Part shown: positions 1,195-21,500 of the stretch, piece after piece
How positions within the stretch are numbered: the first letter of the stretch is position 1
How the letters are laid out: each line of letters starts with the position of its first letter
Source: Diploschistes diacapsis
Lineage: Eukaryota
Assembly (NCBI GenBank): GCA_023645945.1
Contig: JALAIB010000035.1
Location: 1-43,484 of the forward strand
Direction of reading: 5' to 3'
DNA: 43,484 nt
Program-made: the position numbers and the translations under genes
The notes under the pieces: generated by a model
Databases searched by the model: none
Seen by the model: the letters and a program-made list of their open reading frames with translations, nothing else
Told to the model about the DNA's origin: nothing

Positions 1195-4100
1195 ATGTCA
1201 CAACTCACTCCAGAACAGGCTCGTGAGATAATTGCACGGATAAGAAGGGACAATGGCGGTATTTCCGCCGAACGCCGCAGATTTCTCAAGGCAGTAATGC
1301 CGGATGTCCTGGACGCTCTGACCGGGGTGCGGAGAAAACTCGCGGGCGCTACAAAGATGTATGGCTGCAGATCAATATTCGCTTGAGCTGTTCACTAACA
1401 CATGAACAGCCTCGTCAACAACCTTTACTCCAAGGACACACGCTTTCTTTACGAGCTCATCCAAAATGCGGAAGACAACACATACAGCAAAGCGGCAGAG
1501 AAGGGTGAAAAACCATTCCTCACGTTCAAGATCTACGCCGATAAGATTATCATTGACTCGAACGAAGACGGCTTCTCCGAGCGCAATGTGAGTGCGATAT
1601 GCTCTGTGGGGGAGTCAACAAAAGCAAACAGCGAAGGATACATTGGCGAAAAGGGCATAGGATTCAAGTCGGTGTTTAAAGTCGCTCAGAAGGTGCTCAT
1701 ACAATCACATCCTTTCTCTTTTGTATTTGAGCATACTCGAGAAACTGATGACGATGGCCTCGGCATGGTCACACCTGACAATGCGGACGCAGAAGAGGCT
1801 CCGCCAGGGGTACGCACTAGAATGGTATTAACTTTGAAAGATAGCATCAAGTTCGACCACCTTGTCTCCGAGTTTCGATCAATTCCAGATACTCTGCTAC
1901 TATTTTTGCGACAGCTCCAGCTGCTGACTGTTGAATTTCATCCTCAAGCTGGGAAGCAGTCTTCGGAACACTATGCCAAGCGCGAAACGAGACACGGATC
2001 ACTCTACACTACTTTTTTGACAAAGTCAACCCATGCACAAACTGAGCCCTTGAAATCCGAGAAGAAATTCTATACCACTAAGACGGCTCTACACGATCTT
2101 CCCTACGACGAAGCCCGGTTGGACAAAAAAGGCAACAGCATTGCTCATGCTACAGTCGTTCTGGCGTTCCCTGTTGATGATATGGATACGCCAGTCTTGG
2201 AGCAACAGCATACATTTGCTTTCCTACCCCTTCGTCGAGTTGGCTTCAATTTCTTAGTTCAGTCGGATTTTGTAACTCAAGCAAATCGAGAAGATGTCGT
2301 GAACTCGACTCGGAATCGGGCCATCCTGAAGGGTGTCGCGCAGGCCTTCCGGAGTGCCATGGTTGGTTTTTACACCCACCCCTCCTTACGATATCAGTGG
2401 ATGAGGTATCTTCCACAAGACTCCGTCGTGGATGAGTTCTGGAAGGGTTTGACCGATCTTCTCAAAGAAACTCTCAAAGAAACCCCTTTGCTAGAGTCAT
2501 GGAGTGGCAAAGGTCCCTACATTCCAACAAAACTTCAAAGACTACAGCATGAAGTATGCGATGGTTTTGGGAACCCTCTCCTCGCGGATCTGGCCAACGA
2601 GGTTTACCTTTCCCGGAAATATACCGAAGGAGACTTTCAAATCCTAAAACAACTTGGAACACAGTTTCTAAGCGTGGGAAACTTCCTTGATCGCCTAGAG
2701 GTAGACCTTGGGTCTGCGAACTCTAGGTGGCGAAGCATGACGGAAATTGGAGATTGGCGCACCCGCATGTGCAACACACTCCTAATGCTTTTTCCAAACA
2801 GCGACCGTCAAAGCATTCCAGGATGTTTGCAAGCCCTCAAATTAATTCCAATGTACAACAACACTTGGCGGCCAAGCGGCGCAAATCTCTTTTTCCACAG
2901 TACGCAAGATTTCCTCAGTACGCAAGACGTACCGATTCCCACCGATTTAAACCTTAGCTTGGTGAACCCCATAGCGTTCAAGAACGATGCTTGGATAAAG
3001 CTCCTTGTTAAGTTAGGTGTAACCAGGTGTGCATCTGATGAGGTCATCAAGTCTATAAGTGTACGATACTCTTCCCAACGGCTCGATGGCATCACACAAG
3101 ATAACCGCATCGCGCATATCCGGTACCTATACTGGTTTCTTCCCCAAGACGTCCTTAGTCTGGACAAGAGGATTCGATTTGCAGATCACAACAACAATTT
3201 GCTATCTAGGGAAACGTCTCTGTATTTTCCCGACGTACACGATAGCTACAGTCCGGCGGAGCTGTTCAAGAAGGATGGAAAGCTACCTGGCTATAGCGTA
3301 CACTACCTACATTCTACGTATCTAGAGGCAGTGGACGCTACGGTAGCATGCAACGGCCGTTCATGGATCGCGTGGCTGGAGGACGTGGCTGGAGTTTGTC
3401 GAGCTCCTAAGCTCTGTGGAGACGGCCCTCACAAGATATCAGGTGAATTTCAGTATATCATCAAATACCGGTCCGACAAGTTTCTTGGAACTCTCAAATG
3501 CTACTGGGCTCACTACAAGGCTTCCATCGCTGATGTTGCGCAAGAATTATCGGACAGTGAGGTTGATCTAGAAAATAGTGGAAAGGACGTTCTTACAGCC
3601 GCGTTTCTCCCTTTTCCCAAGTTGAAGAGAATAGCCGCCGAGCTTCATGTTGACCAAGCGCTAGGATTCATCTCTATGTCCGAAAAGTTGCAAGACGAAG
3701 AGCTGACGAACTGGAAGTTCCTCGAACAACTCAATTACACACATTTTGAGAACGATCTTTTCTTTTACTCAAGTGTCTTGATTACATTTGTCGAACTCAA
3801 CCAAGCTCTCCAAACGTCATCCATCGAGTCATCCCTTTATACGATATACAACAAGATACAGTCTTTATGCCACGAAGACCTGGAATATGCACGGTCTGTG
3901 TATATTGGCTTTTTTCCACAAGCTATTCGCTAACAAAGTTTAGTGATTTGTTCTCGAATAACGATTGTATCTATGTGCCACCGCCAGATAGGCGCGGAGA
4001 TGTTTGGGTGGCGGCTAGTGAATGTGTATGGAGTGGCCCTCCGTGGCTTAAATCAAAACAGCGCTTGAATGTGGAAGCGTACCAACCTTTCGAGCCTCTA

Positions 4101-7100
4101 TTTAAGACATATTTGCAAATCTCCGACGCTTCCCAGGCGGACATCCTTGAAGACTTGGTGAGGCTTAAGGAAACTGCCACAACAGGCATCAACGCCGAAG
4201 ATGTCAAGGAAATATATGACCATTTCTACCATGAATTTATCAAATCAAAGGATAGAGAGAGCTGTAGCCAACTTGAAAACTTACGGTATGTAAACCTTTG
4301 CCTTTGTTTGTGTTCGAAACTGACTCTTCAGCAACTCATTTGAAGATTCAGCTTTGGTATACGTGCCCCATGAGCATGCCTGGGTCCCTCCCTCAAGGTG
4401 CGTATGGGCAGATTCACACGTGGTCATTCCAGGACAAAGCTCACTAGCCACGGCCTATTCTAACCGCAAGACTTTCTTTACGCGAGCATTGAAAGTTCCA
4501 GAGCCGTCTACTGCAATGTATATCAAGTCACTGAAAGCGGAGGCGTCTGGAAACAAAAGAACAGCAAAATTGAAAGAGATCATGGCGCTTATTAGTCGCC
4601 TTGGAGTTAAACCTGCAGACGTTGAGAGCCTCGCTGGGACACGGATCTTTCCAATCAGGCTCGCCAACGGTGAGACCTGCTTGGCATCTGCCTCGTCACA
4701 CGCAGCTTCGGTGGATTTTGCCATTATCGAGAGATTGACACACGACAGTGGGTTCAGTGGTAAAATCGCCATGCTTGACTTTTCTATAGAAGATATCCGA
4801 GACATCCGGCCTTTTCTGCTTGCAAATGGACTCGAAAACCGGTTCTCAAGCACGCTCGTTAAGGAAATAACCGATGTGAAAGGAGGCGTCCTAGAGCAAG
4901 ACTTGACCAACAGTCTCCGGCTCAAGACTCGAGCTATCGTACGGTATGACAAATGTTCTCGTCTAGCACGTAAAGTGCGGTAGTAGACCGCCTCTAAATC
5001 GCTAATTCGCTGATAGTTGCGTACTGAACTATGCCGGACCTAAGAGAACGTTTGACACCCAATCGCTGTATCGTATCTTCCGACAGGCCTCGGTCTTTTC
5101 GAGTGACCGTATCCGACTATCTATGAGGATAACCCAGAGTGGGAAGAGCATCGAAAGCGCTTATAGTAGCGCTAACTTCCACCTTGACAAAACTGAGGAA
5201 GGCCTGTATCTTTATCTACCAAAGGATGAGGATGAACGCGAGGTTTGCTTTGAACGTCAACTTCCTCGAAGACTTTGCGATTTCCTAAACATCAATGATA
5301 AGGCCGCAGAAGGTGTGATTGGTGCTATATTTCGAAAGGACAAGCCAGCTGTGATAGAAAAAATTCTGGTCGATGCGGGCGTCGCGCAGGTAGACTGTGA
5401 TTTTGAACTCTTAGAAGAACAGCTCATGACGGATGAGCCGGAAGTCCAAGCACTGATCACCAGAACAAGTGGCTTGGAACTTTCACCAACACCAACGAGA
5501 AATCTCGAGGTTTCGATTTCAACCGATGAGCTCGCTCCACTCTCATCAGGCCGTGCATGGCAGCAGTCGCATGTATCGAACCATGTATCCTACCAAAGAA
5601 CGCAAAACGCAACGCTCAACTTCAATTCTAATGCGCTTTATGAAGGTGCTGCGTCAACAACGAGCTTTTCTAGAAGCGTCTTAACCGAAACGCAAATATC
5701 AGCGTATAAGGAAATCCTCGAAGATCTGGTCAATGTTGCTAGGAAGCGCGCGGGGAATGATGTTTTTGAAGTAGGAGTTCCTAGAGTAAGCGGCCAAGCC
5801 ATCGGCGGAGTCTCGTATGATGTCGTTCAAGAAGCCTTTGGCTACCGTTCCTTGGAACGCGATTTCAAGCTTGGAGTGGCTGGAGAGCTCTATGTATGCA
5901 AACCATGGTCATCGGGCCATCCGGACCGTCTCGTTAACGATTTAACAGATGTTCGAGTATCTGAAGGGGCTTGAATTGCCTGGCTTCGGTCTCGCCAATT
6001 GGATGAGCGAAATACGAGATCGAGTCGCCTCGCACCCTGACTATCATGGTATCCGAAACATCGTTAATCGGGATGCAATTGCTGATATCGAGTACACGGA
6101 TCATGAGGGCAAACTAACCGACTTTTTAATCCAGAAGGGCCATCTCGAAGAAAATCTCTGGGCGGATGAACGTCCTCACTACCATTTTGAAGTTAAAGCG
6201 ACGATTAGTGGAAATTGGCAAGAGCCGTTCTTTATGAGCAAGAATCAGGAGCGTCATGTACGTTGTCTAGAAGCTTGTTTTGGGGCATACTGAGTGTAAA
6301 TGCTAGATTCGAGAAGCGTACATTGGACGAGGTAAAACCGGTCCAAGAATTTATGTCATTTGTCGCATCTTCAATATTGGAAGAGGCGAGGCAACCGGTA
6401 TGCTAATATATGTCGACCCGGAGGCAAGAAAACGATCCCGGCAGCTGGAATTTGTGAGTCAGACGTGGGCCGTGAAGCCAATGTGGTATCTCGGCATGCA
6501 AGGTTGGAAAGATGAAAACAGTTCAACAAGCAAGGACTTTGCCGGTGTCAAATCACAAGCAAGTAAATCGAACCCCTTCGGCCAAACTGAAAGTGTTGGC
6601 GGCTCGTCTTCGACTCCGTTATTCGGCGGTGCCTTCGCATCCTCCTCCAACGGCAGCATTCCAGGACCATCGACCTCTAATGGGCCCTCCTTTGGAAACT
6701 TCAGCCCCCTTAGGTTTGGATCAACTGGACTTGGATCTGTTGGGTCCAGCACAGCAAACTCGGATACGAGTGGCTTCGGGTCGCTTGGTTTTGGATCGAC
6801 GAAAGCCAAGTCCGAGACAAATGGGTCATTCGGTTCACCAAAACAGCCGGCAACTGATGCCTCTGCAAGCACTGCTGCGACTGCTTCCACCCCTAATCTG
6901 CCAAAGGATAAGGGTCCCTTGTTTCCATCCGGTACGACGTCTACGCCTGGCTCTCTTCCAAAACTTGGCCTATTCAACCAGCCTTCTACAAGCCGCTCCA
7001 CCCCAAGCAGCGGCAGTGACCCCTTGGCGGCCCTCTTGAAAACGACTGCAGCTAGCACTGGAGGTCAGGCAGACAGCGGCAGCAGTCCTCTTTCATTTTT

Positions 7101-8213
7101 CTCGAAACCGGCTGCCGCTCCAGCAAGCAGCGGGTTGTTTAGCAGTACATCCGCGACTGCAGCTAGCACTAATGGTCAAACAGGCAGCGGCAGCAGTCCT
7201 TTTGCACTTTTCTCGAAACCGGCTGCCGCTCCAACAGGCAGCGGGTTGTTTAGCAATACATCCGCGACTGCAGCTAGCACTGGAGGTCAGGCAGACAGCG
7301 ACAGCAGTCCTTTTGCACTTTTCTCGAAACCGGCTGCCGCTCCAACAGGCAGCGGATTGTTTAGCAGTACATCCACGAAGACCACCGCAACCGCGTCCGG
7401 ACTGTTTGGTACAGCTACGACAGAAACCGCACACCAAAGTACATTCGGTCACTTTCTAAGAGGTAATACTTCGTCTAGCTCAAAAGGTTCGGGAACAAGC
7501 AGTAATCTACCTGGAGACGCCAGTTTCGGTCAGAGTCAGCATACATCATCACCATTGGCAGAGCCAGCTACAGTAAATCGTGCATCTGGAAGTGGCGGTA
7601 CATTCGGAGGAGGTGGTGCATCTGGAAATGGCGGTACATTCGGAGGAAGTGGTGCATCTGGAGGTGGCGGTATATTCGGAAGAGGTGGTGCATCTGGAAG
7701 CGGCAGTATATTCGGAGGTGCCAGCGCCTTCGGCCAAGGTTCGTCTGCAACATTGGCCGGCAGAGGCATCGCCAAGGATACATCGAACAACAACCCGCTT
7801 TTTGGCCAAGCCCCTCCAGCGAAGTCAGCGTTAAAAGGGGAAGCTATAACAAACAACCTTTTCGGAGGTGGACAGTTGTCAATACCTTCAACAGTGTACA
7901 GCAGCACAGGTCCATATTACGTTGAGTATTACGTTGAGAATTTGCTCGCTATCAAGAACTATTTTCAAAGTATAACGCTAGCTGAAAGGTTCCAACGTTT
8001 TTCTTTTGAAGTAAGTCACCCTTTTCTCTTAATTTCCTGCCTTGCTTCAGTCTAAAGCCTATAATGGTGACAGGGGTAACAGCATATGTCACGTCTTTAT
8101 AATGATATGAAGCACCTTGGATTGTTTGTGAAGCTAAGAATGAATAATAATAACCTATTTGATAGGAGCTACGTCTAGCAGATTATGCCATAATCAACGG
8201 CAAATCCATCTAG
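1195..8213 (+). CDS. Sacsin/NO VEIN-like GHKL ATPase + DUF3883-like nuclease domain + FG-repeat region + C-terminal GLEBS motif (~2,179 aa)
   Basis: Exons 1195-1358, 1410-3893, 3944-4285, 4332-4943, 5017-5893, 5949-6257, 6307-8010, 8166-8213 total 6,540 nt in one frame, and all introns are GT-AG. GHKL boxes: RFLYELIQNAEDN, IDSNEDGF, IGEKGIGFKSVF. DUF3883-like motifs: GVAGELYMFEYL...ADIEY...FEVKAT...FFMSKNQ...YVICRIFNI. About 17 FG dipeptides in exon 7. The protein ends in FQSITLAERFQRFSFE|ELRLADY. Confidence 0.85.
7044..7376 (+). repeat. Coding tandem repeat, ~3 x 111 nt (37 aa, TAASTGGQADSGSSPFALFSKPAAAPTGSGLFSSTSA-like)
   Basis: GACTGCAGCTAGCACT recurs at 7044, 7155 and 7266, and the units are near-identical at the DNA level. 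Confidence 0.95.
7580..7720 (+). repeat. Coding tandem repeat, ~4 x 36 nt (GASGxGGxFGGx)
   Basis: GTGCATCTGGA...TTCGGA recurs with a 36-nt period. Confidence 0.9.
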
Positions 8214-8884: not shown

Positions 8885-10600
8885 ATGTTCCTCCGCCGTT
8901 CCGCCTTCATCGCCTCGCGGCATCTCTCCCGCTCCTCAACAGTCACACGCAGCTTCAGTACTGCCATCGCGCGCCGTACGTTCGATAATTGACATATCAT
9001 AGTCTCAGGAGCTTGAGGTAGCTAATTCGAGCTGCAGGGGAAGCGCAGACGCACCAGGCGAAAGACACGCATGAGCACGGGCACGGAGCTGTAGCTCACA
9101 AGGGCGTGGACATGGACACGCCGGCGAAGCTGGCGAAGTTTGAAGGTGCGTCCCTTCAGTGCCTTTGGGTTCCTACAGAGCTGGCACCGTGGATATGGAG
9201 TTCCAGCATTAGATCTAAGGGATTAGCGATTGGTAGCTGAATAACTACACAACGCGCACCATTGCTGCTTATTCCGCCAGCTATACGGCGTACGAGAGCT
9301 CTTGATGATCAATAGCTAACGTGTCTACCTTGCAATTAACAGAAGTCGAAAGCGAAGCCGACCTGATCCCACCGGGCGCTGAAGTAGGCACAGTGCCGAC
9401 CGACTACATCCAATCGACCGGTCTCGAGCGTTTGGAAATTCTAGGAAAGATGCAGGGCATCGACATCTTTGACATGCGGCCTCTGGACTCGTCGCGAAAA
9501 GGTGCGCTGCAACACCCTTCTCCTACTTGCTAGCATCACGGAGTGAGGCCAGAAAGTGGATCGGAACACTACAATACTGTGTCACTGCGCGTTAAAGCTT
9601 GAGGTCGTTGGCTGGAAATAAAGAAAAGACGGCGTGAAGAAGGATATTGCACAATCGATGTAGAACGACGGCTGACACCTAACCCGCGGAAACAGGCACA
9701 ATGGAAGACCCCATCAGGGTCAAGTCCGCCGGCGACGAGCAGTACTGCGGCTGCACTGGCTGCCCCGCCGACTCCCACCACGTTGTCTGGCTAGCCGTAA
9801 GTCTCCACCCCCTCCAATCCAGCCTCCTCAATCTCCCTCTCTACCTATCACGATATATCCCCTTCTACTCCCCACATCAACGAACGGCGGGAAACATAGG
9901 ATCTCCCTCTCTGTCGTATACACCTCCAATAGTAACAAGTATAACCGCACAGATGTCCCGCGACCGCCCCCTCGAGCGCTGTCCCGAGTGCGGCAGCGTG
10001 TACGAGATGGAATACATTGGCCCGCCGGATGACCCGCACGGACACGACCACCACGGGCGTGAGTTGACTTCCTTTTCCATCCTGTGTCTTCCGCCTCATC
10101 TAGTTACCCTCTCGTCTCATCGCCCCGCCTGTCCCATTTACCTTCCTCAAACCCGCTTTCCATCTCCCCTTTCCCACTTCCTATTCCCCTACTCTCCTCG
10201 TCCTCGTCCTCGTCCTCCTCCTCCTCCTCCACCACCACAACTTCCCTCATTCTTTCCCCCTCGTCCTCAATCACCACCTCAATACATCTACCCCTCTCGC
10301 AATCCATCCATCCATCCATCCATCTATCTATCTATCCCTCCATCAATCCATCCACCCATCTACGTCCCTTTCCCCACCTTCCCACGTCCACACGCCATCA
10401 CCACCAACCTGTCCACGCCAACGCATTACTACATACGCCACAGCCACATCACGCACACACACAGACACACACACCCTACGTATGGAGTGGGCTAACCACG
10501 CAACATACGAAACACAGACCACGGCGACGGCGCGCACAACTACGAAGGCGAACCCGTGACCTTCGCCGACTTCATCAAGCCCGAGTATCGGTACCGGTGA
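8885..10600 (+). CDS. COX4: Cytochrome c oxidase subunit IV (Cox4/COX5B family), mitochondrial, ~215 aa
   Basis: Exons 8885-8975, 9038-9145, 9343-9501, 9696-9796, 9953-10058, 10518-10600. Arg/Ser-rich presequence MFLRRSAFIASRHLSRSSTVTRSFSTAIAR, conserved VPTDYIQSTGLERLEILG, and zinc-ligand motifs CGCTG..SHH and RCPECG. Confidence 0.95.
10190..10475 (+). repeat. Microsatellite cluster in COX4 intron 5: (TCCTCG)n/(TCC)n, (ATCC)n/(ATCT)n, (CA)n
   Basis: Directly visible simple repeats in a strongly C/T-rich intron (10059-10517). Confidence 0.9.
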
Positions 10601-11166: not shown

Positions 11167-14100
11167 CTAAGCGAAGTTATCGCTCCTGTCCACCCAAATG
11201 TCCTCCAACTCCGCGAAACTCTGAAAGTGCAACGGCCGATGGGCCGCAGCGTAGTACGGCTCCGGAGTATCGACCTTCATGTGCAAGGCCTTCTTCTCTA
11301 CGCCCGGAAAGGCACCGCCCATGAAGCCGTAGTTCCACACCCCGCTCTCGGGGACCAGGAAATAGCCTCTGAACCGATCGCTCAGCAGCAGCTGCGTCTT
11401 CTCGCCGAAGCTCGTGCTGAAGCCCTGTGGCGCGTCCGAGCTCGTGTCCTTGTTCTCCGCACCCCACTTGTATCCCTGGGGCGTCAGGGCCCAGGCCGCG
11501 AGAGCGACGGAGCCGGGCGCGAAGGTGACGGTCATCGTGATCGTTTTGCGGTCCCAGGACTTGTGGGAACTCATAAGGCGGGCGTGCTGTGTGACGTCCG
11601 GAGCGGTCATGTAGGGAGGTTCGTTGCCGGCGTGCGTGTGGATCACGCCCAGGGGCTCGAGACCGGACAGGTACTCATGCTGCGGCAGCTGCTGAGGTAG
11701 CTGCACCTCGCGAGTGTTGCCCACTTGCGGGACCATGGCTATGGCCCGGATCTCTTTGACCTTGGAGTTATCCGGTGGGGAGGCCCCGTAAAGATACGCG
11801 GCTATTTGCACACGCAGGTCGGCGATGATTATGAATCGCTTGAGGACGTTCTTGGGAAGGACGTAGGTGAAATGGTCCTCGTCTTCGCGAATGTCGTCCG
11901 AGTTGATATAAATATTGTTGGACCGGGTTCGGAGGTTGGTGGTGGCTAGTGCCCGCATTCGCCATTCCGCCTTTGACGCGAAGGACTGTTGCTCGTATTG
12001 CGAAGTTGTGGTGACAATTAACTTCTCTCCGTGCGCATTTTGAATTTCAGTCGTTACCGCCGTGAGCTGTTGTTGCTCCTGCTGCTGTTTGTCGATTTCG
12101 GCTGCTTGCTGCCGTTGCATCGATGGTGCACTGATTTCCATACCCAAAATAATGTCTCGCACTTCGCTGCTTGTTAAGCTACTTACATTGACACCATTCT
12201 TCTTTGAATAGTCATTCAATATGAGATCACGAAGCTGGGTCTCGACTTTGATCCATTCTTCGTCGGACAAAGTTGGCCAAATGTGATGTTCCAAAGTGAT
12301 GGTCTTGGAGTCGGGTCGGAGGAGCAGTTTTGTTTTGTCCATGTTCACATGCAGAGCCCGCAAAATGAGGATCAACCGTGAGAACGCCGTATAGGACGAG
12401 ATGTTGCCCGACTTGGTCCACTCGTCGTAAAGATTGCAAAGGACCATCTTGGGCTCCGTTGCCTTGAGAATCATGTCTCCTAGCTTCTCGACCTTCATTG
12501 CGGCCTGGAACGGCAGTTGCAACTCGGAAGCTCGGATAGAGATGTTGGGGAAATCGAGTAAATGCACTTCTAGAGGATCTAGGAGACCCTTTCGAGTTAC
12601 TATCAACTGCTTCGGTTGTTCTTGAACAGGTAGCGACCGAATGAGTGCTGCTACTTCTTCGGCCGTCTTCCACTTCGCAAGCTGTCCAAGACGCTTCTGA
12701 CCGGCCCATACACTGGTATGAATGATCTTTAGGAAGAGCTGTCCTGTACGCGGGTTGAAGATGAAAATGGCACCATTGATTGGTTTTGTCGTGAGATTGC
12801 CTGTGTTCGGTTAGCCAAAGGCCTCCCAGCCCATTTAATTACATACCTTCGAATGTCTTGTGGATCGTGACACGATATACATTCGTGTCATCGATGAAGA
12901 GCTGGATCTGGTTACTGAAAAGTTCAGAATAGTTCTGTGAATTCAAGAACTCCTGGCTGCTTTCCGATGCGTAGAGCTGGAGACCCTTTCTTATACGCTC
13001 TCGTAAGACATAAAGTGCAGGATTGGCCTTCATAATCTTAGCCATAGCCTGTTGCATAAGAGTCTTGAGACCCGGGAAATAATGCCCATAACCAGAGTAG
13101 ATATTGTAGGCCAAATCGATACCAATCATCAGACCAGTTGCCGAAGGGTAGATGCTCATGCTGTCCTGGGTGTAATCCAGGAATTTGGCCCTAACATATC
13201 GTTCGATGTCATGGGAGTCGTAGTCACCATATCGAAGTTGAATGTCAATCCAGAACTTGTTTGTTGTGGTTGGCTCAGTAATGTCCTTTGAATCAAACAG
13301 GATGGATGGCTTAGTAACGTTCCACTTGTGGGTCGCGAATAGGAGGATATCAGAGGTGCTCGAACTGAGTTTGTACGATTTCCTCGGATGGATCTTGCGA
13401 AAGATTAGCTTGGGTGTTGCAAATACGTGCAGGAGAAGGGGACTCACCGTCTCTTTCTGCACGGTCTCGATTCCGAGACTCTCCAACTCCTGATCAAATA
13501 CCTATCGACGAGGTTAGCACAATTCAGAATTTTTTAGGGCATGAACCTACTTGACACAGATCCATTGTCACTGACTCGTGGATCTTCTGCCACAGATGGG
13601 CACGGAAGATCTGGATCAAAGAAATTTTCAGTGTTGGAATTTTGCCGTGCAAGAAGATACCCGTCAGATCAAGCTGCACTTGGAAGCCAACGTAGACGTT
13701 GGCCCTGTTAATGGTCGGTGACCACCACAGGGTGAAGCGACGATTCGGAATTTGGTTCAGACCAGATCTCTGGGCGTTAGTCAATTTCTTGAACTTCATA
13801 GACTCTTCAAATCCAGACGCCTTCTCCCAGAACAAGCCTTCCCAAGAAGGAAACGCGGTAGCTTTGAACAAAGTGTGCTCCAGTATCGTTTCGACTCCTC
13901 CAAGGGCTTGAATGACATCCGTTCGATATGCATTGAGATTCCAAAGCTTCCCGTCGTGTCTTTGACTAGTCCACCAAAAGGGGTTACTCTTCATCAACTG
14001 ATATTGTTTGAACTCGGTTCGAGCGCGGAAACCCTTGTCGAAGCTCAGGGTGCTCCTGTCCTTTTGGAAGAGTGTATTGATACGAGGTAAGCCACGATCC

Positions 14101-17100
14101 CAACTGTCTTCGAGGTCTTCCAGTGTCAAGCGTCGATTTTGTTGGTTAGCCTCAAGACGCTTCTGCGAGTACTCCGTCCACACCCTTTGAGAGTCGATGA
14201 ATTCTGCCTCCCAGGGGATGATGTAGCGAAAGATGTTGGGGATCAAGGTTTCTTCATCATGGCCCATACCTGACCGGTAATGTGTGATGCCTGTATCAGT
14301 CTGCTTGGACCATCGCTTGTCGCTGGTAGGAATGAGGATATGGGATCCTGAGATCATGCCGAGACCGCCAAGCTCTTTGGGAGTGTAAAAGACAGCAGGA
14401 GGGAAACGTGACGGCATCTTGGAGTTCAAGCCAATCTTGACACGGGTTTGGATCTTAGTCTCGCACTTGACGATCGTGTCGAGGAGTCCAACGGTGGCGA
14501 CTGCGGCCTCTCGGTAGTAGGTGAAAAGGGCTATCAATGCCGTGTTCCATTTGTTAGCTATCTTTGTAAATGTTGTGGACCCGGAAGACATCAGGATTTG
14601 CCGAATGCGGTTATTGAATTTTTGAATATCCTCTTCAGTGACTTGCAAGAAAGCGTGAGCAGTCCTCTCCTTCGTCCTATTGTCAACCAGCGACCACACG
14701 CTGTCCTTCACCGGAAATTCGTCGTTTTGATTTCTCATCTTTGGAAGGATTCGCACTTCGAAGCCGCACATGGAAAAGAGAAGGTTTGGATTGTCCCTAC
14801 TGTAGACACTTGCGAACGTGTCATCCCACTCGATTGTGGTAATAGACCGAGGTAGCCTATTCTTCAGCTCCCAGAAAACGGCTCTGCCCAGATTGACATC
14901 GTGTCTCATCAGACGCATTCGCGAGTCCCTCGGCCAGCATTTCTTGTTGCGGTAGCCAATAACATTTTCAAAGTTAGGGTCCGGCTGTTCCGTTAGGAAC
15001 CGTTGAATCAGGTCGCGAGATTCATCCGCCGAGAAACGGAAGAACACCCAAATCTTATCGATGTAGCGGGTATAAAGTCTTATGGGCGAGCGAACTTCTT
15101 CCTGCTCGGATCGAAACTGAAGGAAGTCGTTGGGACTACCTGGGGGGCCTGCAATTTCACTAGCTCGCTGCAAGCCCAGCAGAAGCAAGTCGAGCACCAA
15201 GCCATAGTACTGGAAGACAAACCCGGAGAACTGGAGGCCTCGAATAAGACCAAAGGAGTTGACGTGATTCATACTGGAGAGCTGTTAGAAGGAATCCAGA
15301 ACGTGGGAGGGGGGGGGGTTGGACTCAGGGATACGTACTCTTTGTAAGACAACTGGACATTGCTTTTCGAGGAGATATAGTCCGCCAAGTTGTGGTCCAT
15401 GATCAGTCGCAGTAGACGATTAAGAAGAGTAAGATCAATTTTCTCGTAGACCTTCGACAGTTGCGTCTCAAGCATGACGTTGCATTCGCCGTCAGAGGTC
15501 TCCCAGACCTTTGTCAGATTGTTGATACCCTGTGCCCACTTGTACGTGAGAAGAGGCGGCACCTCGGAGTCGGATGGCTTGATCCAAGCCGGGAACAGAT
15601 TGCGCTGATCGGCTTGATACCAGAGATATTGATCGAGATACGCGTCCGTAATTTTCTCAATCGGCTCAATATCATAGACGGGATTGATGCTACTGTAGTT
15701 ATCATTCATGTCTATACCCACTTCCTTGAATGCCCGCTGCGTTAGCAGGAAGCGCTTGATCCGGGTCAAAGTCGTGCCTGGAGAGTCATAAGCTTGTTCG
15801 ATAAGTGCCAGCTCTTCCCTTTGACTCTGATTCAGCCGGCCTTTGACAGAGTATGCTTCCCTAAGGCGCTCCAAGGCAAGGATGAGGATCTTAGTATCAT
15901 GCTTGTACGACACCGCGGGAAATGGAATGGGCGAGAACTTCCGTGACTCGAGCCAGTGGACAGTGGTGGTATATATGGCAACGCCTTCTTCCGAAGAGAC
16001 ATAAGGTCCATCCTTCATATAGTTGTGCTGGCGTTCTTGCTCTGCCTTGAGCCACAGTCTGGTCAATCGACCAAGGTTCTTCTTGGCGACTGTCTTGTCC
16101 ACTGTGGCGCCTCTTCGGATCCGTTCGCGGTTATAGTGTGCTACGCTGACCCACCAATCGGCCTAAAACTCAAATCAGCTACCGTGGTCAATATGTTTCC
16201 CGAACTTCATACCTTTGATTTCACGTATCGCAGAATGATACTCTCTATAGGCTGTGGAAGTCCCGGTACCGACCATGCGATGTTCGATTTCCAACACCTC
16301 CAAGCCTCCGACAAGTGCTGCAGAACAAGATTGGCTTTGTTCTGTTTGATCCCCTCCGGCATCATGTCCATCAAGTCGGCCATGACCGATGCTCGAAGCT
16401 CCAGGTCGAAATGAGATTCGACTCTTTGCTTAGTGACTGTCTTGGCCACTCCCTTGCTGTGTCGCCCTTCGAACTGGCGAGACAGAAGATTACCAAGCCA
16501 TCTTTCCAGCAATGGGATGATGCCCCTCAAGAAGAATAGCCAGACTCTCCAAGCAGGAGCCCAGAAACCGCAACCTGGGCCTTTTCCAACAGGACCAGAG
16601 TTGAACCGATAGTAAATCAGATGCTTGAGATCTTTGCATGACCGGATCTGGTGCATGAGCTTGTACTTGTAGCGGTACATCCCAGTCAGCTGTCCAACGT
16701 GGTTGAAGGCGTAGAGGATACCATCGGCAAGCTGGAAGGCATCAATGTTCCCCAGGCGATATTGCACTTGAGCATCCACAATAAGCTTCGTCAATCGTAA
16801 TATTTCCCGCATCAGATGAAAAGCATTGCCGAACCTGGACTTCTTCCGCTCCTTCGTAGTCAATGTTTTCACAGGCTTGAGATTGAAGTTGTAATCGAGA
16901 TGCAGGTAAGTAAGATTCTTGCGATGGATGAGTAGATTGAGCATGTTGAAACCTTGACGACAGACTTGAAGACCGGCTTCAACCCAACTGTAATACAAAT
17001 CAGCTTGTAGTCAGACAAGGAGGGGGTGGGAGTTCGACTTACTCTATGGTTGTTGTTTGGAAATACTTTGTCTGTTTGAGCGATGTCAACAAGTCTTGCT

Positions 17101-18553
17101 TATTCTGCGGTTTCGGTTTCTTTTTGTGTAGTTCATTGAGAACATAAGTCTTCAAGAGCTTCTGATACGACACCCGGACCTTGACTGGCTGCCCCTGTGG
17201 TACATGTTCGAGGTACCACTGTTTCACCAAAGGCACGTCTTGTGCTCGAACCATCTTACCTGACCGCTTGTTGAATGGATAGGGAGCCCACCACAAAGCA
17301 ATGGCCGACGAGGTGTCCGTATTGTGCAGCTCCTCATCAACTAAGAATGGCTCCATTTTCTTGGGCAAGACGAATTCGTCCTCCTCGTTACCGTATCCGA
17401 AGACCTCGTCCTCATGGGATAGTGTCAAATTCTTCGGCGCAACGGAGCGAGAGGAAATGGGATTGATGATTGGGTCGAAATAGAAGGCGGGCAGATTGGG
17501 ATCCTCGGTGGCTACGTAGACGACCTGGGGATGAGAGTACCAGGATATGTGTACGCTCCGTGGGAGTGAGTTGTAGAGATAGGGAAATGCCACCCTATAC
17601 TCAGTCCGGATCGGGGCACGGAAGATGATGCGGTCGATAGCGTTGAACTCGCCGAAGTCCTCCTCATTAGGATCGACGTCCTTGTAAAGAGGTTCGAATC
17701 TGGGACCACCTGGTATAGCAACATTAAGAGCCTTTGCAGTAAAAAAGGATTCTCGGTCGAACATATGAAAATAGTTCTGGTCTACAGTGTCACTCAGAAG
17801 TGAGCGACTTAGGCGATATAAGGTAGCCAGCTGGGGCAGCGAGAGGTTCCACTTCTTATAGCCTGGGCCGTTGGTATGTGGTGTTCCGAGCAGGGCTCGA
17901 TGTTCATAGAACCAGTCAAAGACAGGCCCATCTTCAGTTTCATCAAGTTCCATCTGTATGGGTTCCAGAGGTTCCACATCTTCGATATTCTCCGACCAAG
18001 ATAGGGGTGGTTCTTCATCATCAAAAGGAGGGAACCGCATTCGCTTGAAATGTCTTCTGTCGCTCTTTTCTCTCCTCATACATACCCACATAGAAGCCCA
18101 CTGTGCATGAAACAGAGGTCCTATGACTCGAGGAGTCTCGTTGACGAGGGTAAGGCAACCGTTGACATGGTACAGCACTTTCACCTCCCTCGAAGACTCC
18201 CAAGGCATGGGCATGTTCTCCAGTAGTTTGAGCACAGCGTGTGGCATAAATTTCAGAGCACCCAGATAGCTTCGCTTGTCGTTGCTGAACTTCTTCTGCG
18301 AGACATCTCCGATATCTTTGACAATCTTCCGCAGATGCTCAGGCGGCATATCCGCCTTTTGAGTTTCGACATATCCGGCCTTGCGCTTCTCACCGAATCT
18401 GTTGTGCTGCAGCCTCAGCCATTCCCTCTTTTTCTGCGCCCATTTTGCTGCATTGGGGTCAGCTGTAGGACGATAACCTGGTGGCGGAGGTGCTGTGGGC
18501 AATGAAGGTGGTCCGGCACTCCACCCGGGAGGCGGAGGAGGAAGAGTAGACAT
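11167..18553 (-). CDS. PRP8: Pre-mRNA splicing factor Prp8 (U5 snRNP), ~2,355 aa, no intein
   Basis: Exons 18553-17043, 16987-16213, 16162-15339, 15273-13551, 13501-13448, 13393-12847, 12800-11167 total 7,068 nt in frame. Hallmark sequences include [55 protein letters not shown], the RNase H-like region, and the C-terminal Jab1/MPN region (HRPLHF). Confidence 0.99.
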
Positions 18554-21500
18554 GACGGTTGTGGGCAGATGTTGAGAGAGGGTAGAAGGTATCTGTATTT
18601 AGATAGGAGGTTGATGTCCTGCTGTCAACTGCGATGAATTTCGAGTTTCCAGGATAGACGTTAGTCAAATAGCCTTGGCAAATTGCCCGGATTGTGGCCC
18701 AAGCCTCGAAAACTACCTCTTCTCCAGATGTCAGGTAACAACAGTCCAGCTCCAAATCCTTAGAAAGCCCCTCGATGTTGCTTCTGCATCAGCTTCTGAC
18801 CCAAGCTCTACGCGTTGAGGGGAAAATCTTGACGAACGGCAGAAAAAGCTCCCGCAAATGTTTTAGCCTCCGTATGGTAGCAGGGGGTGGGATGGAGATA
18901 GTGTGTTATCGCCGCTTCACTCAGCCCTATCAGATCTCGAAAAGCATTTAGGAAGAGCTTAACCTTCAAAACAACACACATAACTCCACAAAGAACAATC
19001 CAACACCCTCAATGCCTCATAGCGACTATGTTTACACTTGTGGTCTGATTGGTATTCATCAATCACAAAGAAGTAGTTGGGGTTCCGATTGTCCTCACCG
19101 TGGTGATGCGCCCGAATATCCCGTTACCTTCCAAGCTCAGCACCAGAAGCAATAACATAAAAGCCCATCATGGAATACTTGTGTGGGAAGTGAAGTATCC
19201 GTTTATCAGGAAAATGCTCTGTTCCGCAAAGTGCATGATTTGGAAATTCGAGTACCCTATGTATATATGCGTATGTATCTCAGCTAGATCCCTCTTTATT
19301 ATGAAAATTTCCATAATTGCGAGCTTTTCTCGTCCTGTTTTCTTACTGACACTACCAATCTGGTTTCATTTCCACAAATGCTATTCTCTTCTGTAATGTC
19401 GATGTCATACTGTACTGCCGACGTTTGTTGAGAGCAGAGGCAACGAGCTGTCATCTCCCGACCAAAGGACTTCCTACTCCGCCTACTGACCCTTAATATA
19501 CATCTACTTTATGAGCGACGTGAAAGCGCCTGGGTTTTGTTTTTGGGGAGCGGAAGATTTTCAAGGCTGTGTTGTAAGAGTCAGAGGAATAGAAAGTATT
19601 CCGCAAGACACATAGCTGCACCAGGAACAGGTGCTCGGCTTCCAAGCAGCATCGAGTTTTAGAATGGGAAGAAGTTTCATAGATACCTGCCCGAGTAAAT
19701 GGAATCCAGTTACTGATAGGAATCAGAGCTTCCTATACATGCTTCACTCCGAGCAATGCAGCGGCCCTAGATGCGCTGTCCCATCACGCTGCTGCATGCG
19801 CTTCTCACATTCAAAGGTGGGAATCCTAGCACTGATCGCCATAACCTGAAAATTGATAATATTCGAAGTTTGTTCATTTCTGAATTTTCTGTCTTATGTC
19901 GGTATATGTCATACTCGCGGGTACCCGTGGGGGAATCCAGCCATCCCGTCTCAGTGCGGCCGAAAGGCTCTTCGCGTGAGCGAATATGTTAGGGGAAGAC
20001 AAAATAGATTCTGCGGTGGCTGGATTCCATGGTGATCTTCAGGCAGGGGAAAACGCGTTGGAGGCATTTGTACCCTGGCCATGGCTGATATGGCGAGTTA
20101 GGGAAGTTCATGACATAGGCACATAAGCTGTTATGCTAGCTTATTTCCCTCTTCATCCTGTTGGCTCGAGTCATGAGGCTTTGGACTAGACTAAAGCGTA
20201 CTTTGTAAAAAGCGCACTGCAGTCCGCGATGCGCCGACCAACCATGACAGAGTACTCCAATTGAGACTCTCTGCATCTCGGCTCCGCACGTCATCTCTCC
20301 GTGATGATTGAGTCTTACCAACAGCCACAAACTCGCGGCAGTGGTTGGCCTCGTGCAACATGATTGCTCTACGGATGACAGCTGTAGCGAGACGAGACAC
20401 GCGGATGTCAGAAGCGGATAAGGAAATCCAAGCCTAGTCCCTCAAAGCCGATATATACCCCCCTGCCAAGTCAGTACCTGGTTATTGTAAGATGCCTTCC
20501 GAGACCCGTTGGTCGATCAACTTGAGCTTGCTAACCCAGCAAGCATGTTCAGGATTGGACACAGACTTGCAGCCGTTTCTTAGGACCTGGGCTTAGAGAG
20601 AACTGGGCGCATTGGTATGCTGCACGCTTCGGACGGCCAGCAATACTAAAGCCCAGCAAGTATCTCACTTGTTACCAGCCCATAGATCGCCTTGGATCTC
20701 CGGCAAGCGCGCGATCCGTAGCAGCGAGTGGAGCTGCAATCGAGTCCCGAGATGCAGGTGTTCCTCACCTTCGTAGATTTTCTCTTGAATGAGGCACAGA
20801 ACACTCGAAAAGAGAGTGCATGGCAGGGTCTAGCCCGTTCGATTTGATTGGTTTAGGTCCGTTGCTTAAGTGAACGGAAATGCGCGAGCTGTAGCCGGCA
20901 GGTCATGGCCATGGAATTTTGTGTAGCTCCCTGCGTGCCTCATCTGATGTCAATGCTAGCCCGGTCCTTTTCTTCCTTAGAAGCTCCTTGCTGGGAGAAT
21001 TCGGGTGCCAGAAGGGTATATCAGGCTAGTGACGGTAGGAGATGCAGGCTCCCTTCCTGACAGAAGAGGCCAAAGCTTACCTATGAAAGTGGTAAAAGCC
21101 CTGAGATAGGGTACCAGTTCGACTGCAAAGCTCATATTGATGCCAAGCTGGACGTTGGAACACCAGATGCCTATTACACGAGGCTACGCCGATTAAAATC
21201 GCTGCGCTGCAGATGTATGCACCTTAATCTCAGAACTCCTCCGTTTCATCGAGGTCAAGGCTCCACGCGGTGTGAAGTGGCACTTTAGATATAGCGATAG
21301 ACTTTCAAAATTGCCAACAGACTTTTTGCTGAATCCAAGTTATATTGGGCAAAAAGGCATGCTGCTTGGATTATTTCTTCGGTGATTTCGTACGTCTTGA
21401 GGTGCAGTGGTTGGTGTCCACGCCCTCTTAGGAAACTGGGTTAGGTGTGAACAATCGGGCATAATCCCTGTTGTTTTTCTTAAGGACCTGCGAATGACAG

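Follow-up and report, generated by a model that had tools for sequence, protein, structure and literature searches.

Introduction

The closest described relatives of the gene reported here are Tiamat (TmtA) of bacteria and NO VEIN of plants, which combine a GHKL ATPase of the SACS type, a long solenoid and a C-terminal NOV_C nuclease of the PD-(D/E)xK type. This core family is the subject of two bioRxiv preprints dated 1 October 2026. B. cereus Tiamat is reported to hydrolyse ATP, nick double-stranded DNA and cut single-stranded DNA, and to have homologs that are common in eukaryotes (10.64898/2026.09.30.754977). The companion preprint ties NO VEIN of plants to virus interaction and describes fungal homologs that carry the Tiamat-like core only, some of them with HET (heterokaryon incompatibility) domains (10.64898/2026.09.30.755639). 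As these accounts are given, both leave the antiviral role of the eukaryotic proteins undecided. Here we describe a gene with the same core in the window, i.e., the whole 43,484-nt stretch of DNA that was analysed (Diploschistes diacapsis, assembly GCA_023645945.1, contig JALAIB010000035.1, positions 1 to 43,484, forward strand). Unlike Tiamat and NO VEIN, its predicted product has an additional C-terminal extension of 519 amino acids (aa), apparently derived from the nucleoporin Nup98, in which FG motifs are followed by a GLEBS hairpin. The best reading is of a putative defence or surveillance nuclease that would use this extension either to dock to Gle2 and the pore or as a bait presenting their binding site.

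Like other fungal homologs, the window protein lacks the N-terminal region described for plant and animal members (10.64898/2026.09.30.755639). The fungal fusion reported for the Tiamat family is to a het-6-like/HET domain, unlike the one found here. The core family is already described, and the FG/GLEBS fusion is not mentioned in those descriptions: the terms nucleoporin and GLEBS are absent from both main texts, FG repeat from that of 10.64898/2026.09.30.754977, and nuclear pore from that of 10.64898/2026.09.30.755639. A single protein among the 918 of the Tiamat set is computer-predicted to the nuclear pore complex, given without comment in the former (10.64898/2026.09.30.754977). A full-text literature search found no paper joining GLEBS with sacsin, and GLEBS was absent among the matches listed in a literature search on Pezizomycotina, lichen, Tiamat, nuclease and integrated decoy.

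Several other systems share parts of this architecture. In Nup98, Nup116 and SonB, as in the window protein, a disordered FG stretch precedes a Gle2-binding hairpin with an adjacent glutamate pair, and the same order is found at the N-terminus of Nup98-96 of Tothia. In contrast to Nup98, the window protein lacks the autoproteolytic Nucleoporin2 domain, Nup96 and any FG domain beyond the GLEBS, its FG density is about one third and its charge ten-fold higher, and the module is joined to an enzyme. Human sacsin also has a SACS-type GHKL domain (PF25794), but the window protein has one ATPase–solenoid unit rather than three, and a PD-(D/E)xK nuclease end. Plant NLR integrated domains and TRIM5-CypA are immune effectors with captured pieces of host proteins that parasites target or use. 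They resemble the bait considered below in that an immune effector repeatedly captured a piece of a host protein; the effector chassis differs, and the bait function of the window protein is hypothetical. The nearest functional parallel, by analogy, is provided by the C. elegans Vasa helicases GLH-1/2/4, nucleic-acid ATPases with FG repeats that are tied to the pore and belong to a genome-defence pathway. The FG repeats of GLH-1 are reported to link P granules to nuclear pores (PMC3063144, PMC12050070). The GLH helicases differ from the window protein in being an unrelated enzyme family, without GLEBS, of animal germ granules.

Results and Discussion

Gene Structure and ATPase–Nuclease Core

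From nt 1195 the plus strand carries seven successive stop-free frames that can be joined by short introns. The splice model has eight exons (1195–1358, 1410–3893, 3944–4285, 4332–4943, 5017–5893, 5949–6257, 6307–8010 and 8166–8213, all on the plus strand), and its predicted coding sequence of 6,540 nt specifies 2,179 aa plus a stop, the same length as that given for a single spliced frame in the first-pass annotation, a reading of the letters alone. Six of the introns are 46–73 nt long, with GT..AG ends and branch-like CTAAC, CTGAC or TTAAC motifs; for the second, an alternative start 6 nt further on (3900) would alter two residues. The last intron is longer than the other six, and its removal is needed to complete the GLEBS. 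Both the N-terminus and the overall length of the predicted protein agree with homologs P0001–P0004. The features of the gene are as follows.

1195–8213, plus strand: whole gene, predicted 8 exons, Tiamat/NOV-like core plus Nup98-derived tail, 2,179 aa
1417–3342, plus strand: GHKL (SACS-type) ATPase and first part of the solenoid, in exon 2, from PADLOC TmtA, Pfam SACS and motifs
5860–6480, plus strand: NOV_C/DUF3883 PD-(D/E)xK nuclease domain (GELY, ADIEY, FEVKAT), at the end of exon 5, in exon 6 and at the start of exon 7
6481–7887, plus strand: FG-repeat tail, aa 1655–2123 (469 aa, 17 FG), sharing a stop-free frame with the nuclease end
7043–7378, plus strand: in-frame tandem repeat, 111 bp x 3.0, with a 37-aa unit (..SPFALFSKPAAAPTGSGLFS..)
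7580–7718, plus strand: in-frame tandem repeat, 36 bp x 3.9, GG(T/I)FGG units
7888–8010, plus strand: first part of the GLEBS hairpin, at the end of exon 7 (..TGPYYVEYYVEN..YFQSITLAERFQRFSFE), from an alignment to Tothia Nup98 and six family segments
8011–8165, plus strand: last intron, 155 nt (GTAAGT ... ATAAC ... GATAG), splitting the GLEBS between SFE and ELR
8166–8213, plus strand: exon 8, ELRLADYAIINGKSI plus stop, with the second adjacent glutamate and the remaining GLEBS core

The exon-2 translation matched the PADLOC TmtA model PDLC03972 over residues 3–644 (E 7.3e-72, 241 bits). Eight TmtA models match this exon, and one of them (PDLC03966) matches exon 4 too. Pfam returned one SACS match (PF25794) at 39.5 bits, above the cutoff of 32.8, and the GHKL boxes are intact and conserved in an alignment with 15 homologs: YELIQNAEDN (E/N box), DSNEDGF (DxG) and GEKGIGFKSVF (GxxGxG). 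The sacsin-type ATPase named in the first-pass annotation is borne out by these results, and the motifs quoted there (ELIQNAED, GEKGIGFKSVF and GELY..ADIEY..FEVKAT..FFMS) are all in the translation. Its suspected link to prokaryotic defence also gained support, from the TmtA match and from the placement of fungal homologs in the family by the two preprints (10.64898/2026.09.30.754977, 10.64898/2026.09.30.755639).

The assignment of a DUF3883/NOV_C nuclease stands on its catalytic motifs rather than on its Pfam score. The E..D..ExK residues of GELY..ADIEY..FEVKAT..FFMS, whose roles are given in 10.64898/2026.09.30.755639, are conserved across the 15 homologs except in P0002, which has G instead of D. 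Exon 6 alone scored 14 bits with Pfam NOV_C, under the cutoff of 22.1, because two introns divide the domain and exon 6 was the only part of it scanned as one piece. Pfam gave no matches to UBL, DnaJ or HEPN, and the protein does not have the set of features that marks sacsin proper (three repeat regions, UBL, DnaJ and HEPN). By its motifs and profile matches, the core is a fungal Tiamat/NO VEIN-like enzyme, with a GHKL ATPase, a solenoid and a PD-(D/E)xK nuclease, the activity of which is predicted.

Exon 7 is a single stop-free frame (6307–8055) that starts with the final nuclease strands (..IYVICRIFNIGRGEATGMLIYVDPE..LEFVSQTWAVKP) and runs uninterrupted through the whole tail, with no stop between the two, just as the first reading had it. 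Since the end of the nuclease and the tail lie in one stop-free exon, a complete nuclease domain could not be translated without entering the tail, and the fusion is predicted to be obligatory.

Exon 2 served as query for a word-indexed search of long proteins, which returned 2,182 proteins at E ≤ 0.001 among 6,620 candidates. The homologs discussed here are the 120 listed of these 2,182, and family counts are given out of 121 sequences. All but one of the 120 (119/120) bear ascomycete names, and most are 1,550–1,750 aa long. A metagenome scan with exon 2 gave 40 loci, among which close kin of this exon were not found: the best identity was 35–42% for matches of more than 400 residues, 45–65% was reached on shorter fragments only, and the GLEBS core was present in 0/40 loci in six frames. 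About thirty of the contigs (L006–L037) match the first 300–440 residues of exon 2 at 28–34% identity, and probably encode prokaryotic Tiamat-type ATPases. Four others (L001–L004) match nearly all 827 residues at 35–36% and look fungal.

C-Terminal GLEBS Motif

The last 56 residues of the predicted protein read ..STGPYYVEYYVENLLAIKNYFQSITLAERFQRFSFE/ELRLADYAIINGKSI, where the slash marks the intron. The GLEBS lies across this junction (..TGPYYVEYYVEN..YFQSITLAERFQRFSFE/ELRLADY), exon 7 ending with the codon for the first of its two adjacent glutamates and exon 8 supplying the second. Both hairpin arms are recognisable in the alignment with Tothia Nup98 and six family segments, which follows the pattern G.P.[FY]..[VT]E ... 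[FY]Q[ST]I[TS]......[YF]...S[FLY]EELRL.D[YF]. A hidden Markov model (HMM) was built from five family segments of other proteins, with the window and Tothia left out. The spliced window protein matched it at 33.0 bits (E 1.6e-9, aa 2147–2172), compared with 5.4 bits for the best of 500 shuffles of its last 80 aa, which upholds the terminal GLEBS noted at first. With the same model the genuine Nup98 of Tothia scored 54.1 bits and the truncated P0002 9.8 bits, and family proteins other than these, the five training proteins and the two from Tothia scored 3 bits or less. The adjacent glutamate pair, which in Nup98 (E201/E202) and Nup116 (E154/E155) is reported to form salt bridges with Rae1/Gle2 (PMC3783196), is kept in the window GLEBS.

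When the five segments and the exon-7 part of the window, without Tothia, were used as a profile against the PDB, eight distinct sequences were matched at E ≤ 5.5e-5, and all eight are Nup98. The best match was 3mmy_B from the Rae1–Nup98 complex (E 4.2e-9); three weaker matches (E 0.07–0.15) are unrelated proteins. The exon-7 part alone gave a chance PDB hit only (E 0.58), so the GLEBS motif needs the spliced end. In pairwise alignment the window GLEBS matched aa 159–201 of Tothia Nup98 with E 1.5e-4. On this sequence evidence the GLEBS is of the Nup98 type and of Nup98 origin.

GLEBS-type motifs of Bub1 and Mad3 bind Bub3, and the core SFEELR is one that we take to resemble them. The hairpin might on that account bind Bub3 and tie the enzyme to kinetochores and the spindle checkpoint instead of the pore. 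We consider this very improbable: the only chains matched by the GLEBS profile among solved structures are those of Nup98, none of Bub1, BubR1 or Mad3 appears among its PDB matches to E 10, the Tothia copy described below derives from Nup98 itself, and the adjoining FG repeats fit Nup98.

The gene is, by its domain content, not a genuine NUP98 gene, in agreement with the first-pass annotation. Pfam gave no hit to PF04096 (Nucleoporin2) or Nup96 in exon 7, the protein ends 7 residues beyond the GLEBS core, and the next identified downstream gene is COX5B.

Relatives in Lichen-Forming Fungi

By name, the five proteins that match exon 2 best (51–54% identity) belong to lichen formers: Wetmoreana (P0001), Xylographa (P0002), Ikaeria (P0003), cf. 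Caloplaca (P0004) and Fulgogasparrea (P0005). In P0001–P0004 the same ..WAVKP / ..WRVTP end is followed by S/T/G-rich, FG-bearing tails of 362–529 aa, while the gene model of P0005 ends inside the nuclease domain. A tail of the same kind, 895 aa long, is found in Icmadophila (P0017). Ordinary members of the family (e.g., P0006, P0013 and P0016) end a few residues past the nuclease domain. Tails with more than 62% S/T/G/A/P/N/Q occur in 6/121 family sequences, and 150-aa segments with at least 5 FG in 8/121, the other 113 having 4 or fewer. P0016, with six FG in a segment of its linker and no GLEBS, was not counted as a module carrier. Five Fusarium homologs (P0070, P0071, P0074, P0083 and P0094) are, at 2,093–2,241 aa, about 500 aa above the usual length; no FG enrichment, GLEBS or Pfam hit except SACS was found in them.

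The Xylographa protein, which is labelled 'partial', ends in ..KFQSVTAAESLQNYSFE (..YSFE), the very point where exon 7 of the window ends, so both have the GLEBS and the intron position in common. The two share 52% identity over exon 2. Xylographa, the window and four Teloschistaceae form a clade with 100% support in which five of the six have the FG tail, the sixth being P0005. These comparisons indicate that the module is conserved in this lecanoromycete clade, which supports selection on it.

Repeated Capture of the Module across Fungi

A GLEBS is present in 7/121 family sequences, and a cut copy in P0002. These copies lie at four different places.

C-terminus: GLEBS in the window and Xylographa
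Past the residue that aligns with P0006 aa 969: GLEBS in an 84–87-aa insert in three Teloschistaceae (P0003, P0004 and P0005)
After about aa 620–631: FG-plus-GLEBS insert (234 + 91 aa) in Hyaloscypha (P0118)
Variable pre-nuclease linker: GLEBS in Macrophomina (P0015, aa 1381–1438) and Tothia (P0063, aa 1333–1389)

A regular-expression match in P0012 was rejected as a GLEBS, being absent from the HMM search hits to E 100. The inserts of the Teloschistaceae (P0003 aa 963–1049, P0004 aa 960–1043 and P0005 aa 867–952) are internal while the FG tail stays C-terminal, and near the corresponding place the window has merely a 46-nt intron (4286–4331). Either the hairpin moved or a second capture may have occurred inside one clade.

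The search with the GLEBS region of Tothia P0063, which returned two of six candidates and is not a survey of GLEBS-bearing proteins, found the Nup98-96 of Tothia fuscella itself (P0121; precomputed Pfam GLEBS, Nucleoporin2, Nup96 and FG). Residues 1331–1449 of P0063 and 149–267 of P0121 are 80.7% identical over 119 aa (E 4e-30). The Tothia copy is a very young GLEBS with flanking FG, and assembly or annotation chimerism is conceivable for it. The Hyaloscypha protein matches aa 51–206 of P0121 over 185 aa, with FG then GLEBS as in Nup98 (E 3e-8).

A tree was built from 39 rows, using the first 900–950 residues with sparse columns dropped (quick IQ-TREE, LG+G4, SH-aLRT); its 38 homologs were hand-chosen from the 120 listed so as to take in every carrier and its closest neighbours. 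A sister lacking the module stands next to each of Macrophomina, Tothia and Hyaloscypha, and Icmadophila lies in an unresolved fork outside the clade of the window. The minimum number of state changes on this tree is five for any module and four for the GLEBS. Forcing all ten carriers into one clade lowered the log-likelihood by 503 units (p-AU 1.8e-37). Separate gains are favoured by the occurrence of four distinct insertion places and by a Tothia segment nearly identical to that species' own Nup98. Taken together, the comparisons suggest that the module was captured separately several times, in support of selection on it.

Repeated capture also bears on what the module is for. In the main rival to an address at the pore, the Nup98 fragment would be an integrated decoy, a bait whose binding by some factor switches on the ATPase–nuclease: with Gle2 it would rebuild the composite Rae1–Nup98 surface, or it would show FG motifs, that viruses or retroelement capsids target. 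We regard this as possible but unlikely. A module copied from the host's own Nup98, as in Tothia, and captured repeatedly at different sites is what would be expected of integrated baits, and the common element is the GLEBS and not the FG: Macrophomina has a GLEBS but 2 FG in the entire protein, and Tothia P0063 a GLEBS but no more than 3 FG in any 150-aa segment. The family is immune in bacteria, and VSV M, SARS-CoV-2 ORF6 and KSHV ORF10 are reported to bind Rae1–Nup98. HIV-1 capsid reportedly binds FG motifs (PMC3795039), and yeast pore genes are described as showing Ty-linked selection (PMC5918913). On the other side, the sequence does not distinguish bait from address, and the long FG tail of the lichen clade exceeds what a minimal bait would need. 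It also counts against the decoy that we know of no fungal virus or element targeting Gle2–Nup98, although none was looked for. That a Tiamat-like nuclease repeatedly took the host Nup98 hairpin, sometimes with FG, as bait or guard of the Gle2–Nup98 export node is accordingly something we doubt without dismissing. If true, it would give fungi an equivalent of the integrated decoys of plant NLRs, and be the first sign that this node, an established target of animal viruses, is contested by fungal parasites (mycoviruses, retroelement capsids or invading DNA).

A further possibility is that FG/GLEBS helps a 240-kDa enzyme with a non-defence role in chromatin or RNA metabolism to enter the nucleus or to partition into condensates, in the manner of plant NO VEIN in development or of the GLH/Vasa helicases of nematodes, which bear FG repeats and act in perinuclear granules. 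Homologs of Tiamat in eukaryotes reportedly gained non-defence roles, and LOTUS domains on animal homologs point to RNA granules (10.64898/2026.09.30.754977); the FG repeats of GLH-1, which tie P granules to pores (PMC3063144, PMC12050070), offer a precedent. The gene also sits among housekeeping neighbours (COX5B, PRP8, cactin and UDP-glucose pyrophosphorylase (UDPGP); a forkhead protein is encoded there too). However, 113/121 family members are without such a module, which is therefore unneeded for the basic function, and its patchy, repeated gain is more like conflict-driven innovation. A housekeeping role is, in our estimation, less likely still than the bait.

FG-Repeat Tail

The tail is rich in S (20%), G (17%), A (12%), T (10%) and P (7%), with 3.6% DE and 5.3% RK. 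As estimated in the first-pass annotation, it contains 17 FG dipeptides; shuffled sequences averaged 5.5 (standard deviation 2.0), and none of 10,000 shuffles reached 17. The GLFG-type motifs are one GLFN, three GLFS and one GLFG. Among its 32 F residues, L precedes in 11, while G follows in 17 and S in 7. The two in-frame tandem arrays indicate recent multiplication of FG units, and the F positions of GLFS are kept in the three 111-bp copies.

Homologs of the tail were sought in two large searches. A word-indexed search among proteins of 995–2840 aa gave 0 of 8,000 scored candidates at E 0.01, and a full HMMER search of 1.84 billion representatives gave a single hit (P0122, E 5.4e-4), a glycine-repeat protein that was judged unrelated. 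The lack of usable homologs in these searches fits fast-evolving FG spacers. In the ESM Atlas the nearest named clusters were Nup42, Nucleoporin_FG and NUP98A at 0.86–0.88, values below a meaningful level that serve as a lead only. Codon-usage scores (core 0.016, tail 0.003, other frames -0.04 to 0.07) do not discriminate, the bias of the genome being too weak.

A tail of this kind could conceivably be debris, i.e., read-through into a decaying partial NUP98 duplicate that is barely expressed or removed and has no function, with the similar models in other genomes reflecting the habits of gene prediction. Its low FG density and freely changing spacers, the absence of tail homologs in the large searches, and relatives that come from automatically annotated and partly metagenome-assembled genomes all speak for this. 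Against it, the frame from 6478 to 8010 has no stops in 511 codons, compared with 7–23 in the other five frames, and the tandem repeats have periods divisible by three. The full hairpin is retained with its adjacent glutamate pair, and the window and Xylographa, at 52% exon-2 identity, still agree in the GLEBS and in the position of its intron. Read-through is moreover impossible for the internal in-frame GLEBS inserts in other fungal classes, which argues against debris there. We consider debris or artefact improbable.

Proposed Role of the Fusion

The best explanation, and one that we hold to be probable without great confidence, is that a Tiamat-like core has been joined to a Nup98-derived module that would place the ATPase–nuclease at the pore and along the path of mRNA export. 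The core family would have come to eukaryotes from, or be shared with, the bacterial anti-phage protein. The stop that followed the nuclease domain would then have been lost in this lineage and the protein extended into a module from the N-terminal part of Nup98, comprising a disordered FG-bearing stretch and then the GLEBS hairpin. The hairpin would bind the top face of the Gle2/Rae1 WD40 propeller through its conserved adjacent glutamates, and the FG motifs would favour binding to transport receptors and to the FG phase in the pore. Because the hairpin would recruit Gle2/Rae1 and the FG motifs would add pore affinity, the enzyme should sit at the pore and along the export path, where it could meet foreign nucleic acid or particles entering or leaving the nucleus. 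A defence or surveillance role is proposed because of the bacterial function of the family and the patchy, repeated gains of the module. Gle2 binding, pore localisation, the targets of the nuclease and the defence role are what we infer for the window protein from these parts.

A number of observations weigh against this view. If the last intron were retained, the protein would end in ..FSFEVSHPF.., without ELRLADY. Pfam Nup98_GLEBS scored four homologs at 18.4–28.1 bits, with Tothia alone (28.1) above the gathering score of 27 and the others under it (23.5, 18.4 and 24.2 bits), and the gene models of the tail-bearing P0001 and P0017 have no GLEBS. In the tree, the group of ten carriers was named after inspection of the tree, and counts of state changes do not separate gain from loss. 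The tail is a weak FG domain, with 3.6 FG per 100 aa and one GLFG, and it scored 16.1 bits with Pfam Nucleoporin_FG (cutoff 32.2). Nup98 FG domains are reported to have a median of 9 FG per 100 aa, 0–0.5% DE and 0.1–2.3% RK (PMC4283134), and Tothia Nup98-96 (P0121) has 8–12 FG per 100 aa, 0–0.3% DE and about 1.3% RK; in density and charge the window tail lies outside the range of such cohesive domains. The three 111-bp copies differ at 6–9 non-synonymous and 1–2 synonymous codons, so the spacers are without visible constraint, and the large searches leave the FG part of the tail without homology support. In composition the tail is FG-bearing and disordered, and not a typical cohesive GLFG domain.

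The anatomy given in the first-pass annotation (GHKL ATPase, NOV_C nuclease, FG tail and Nup98-type GLEBS) is right as far as these analyses go, with the qualification that the Nup98 likeness holds for the GLEBS and not for the density or charge of the FG stretch; its interpretation overall is partly supported. It had offered two roles, a tether at the pore or on Gle2-bound messenger ribonucleoproteins and a decoy, which the present evidence does not distinguish.

As a lineage-specific module of known partner specificity, the fusion offers a direct handle on the targets and location of eukaryotic Tiamat/NO VEIN proteins. The GLEBS (Gle2/Rae1) and the FG motifs (transport receptors and pore) together predict a partner, a location and simple mutants, namely of the adjacent glutamate pair of the GLEBS, the GHKL glutamate and the nuclease D/ExK. 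If the module is an address, an immune-type nuclease would be posted at the entrance to the nucleus; should it instead be a bait, the logic of integrated decoys would apply in fungi too, and in a further effector family. The gene would also provide a clean case of a nucleoporin fragment reused outside nucleoporins.

Neighbouring Genes

A complete-looking PRP8 gene lies at nt 11,167–18,598 on the minus strand, in six stop-free pieces that carry PRO8NT, PROCN, RRM_4, U5/U6 binding, domain IV and PROCT; in the piece at nt 12,839–13,501 there was no Pfam match for the first 185 residues. The zinc-finger exon of COX5B (nt 9683–10,495, plus strand) is inside a 270-aa stop-free frame that continues into a proline-rich stretch, and upstream of it, near nt 8900, is a start resembling a mitochondrial presequence (MFLRRSAF..).

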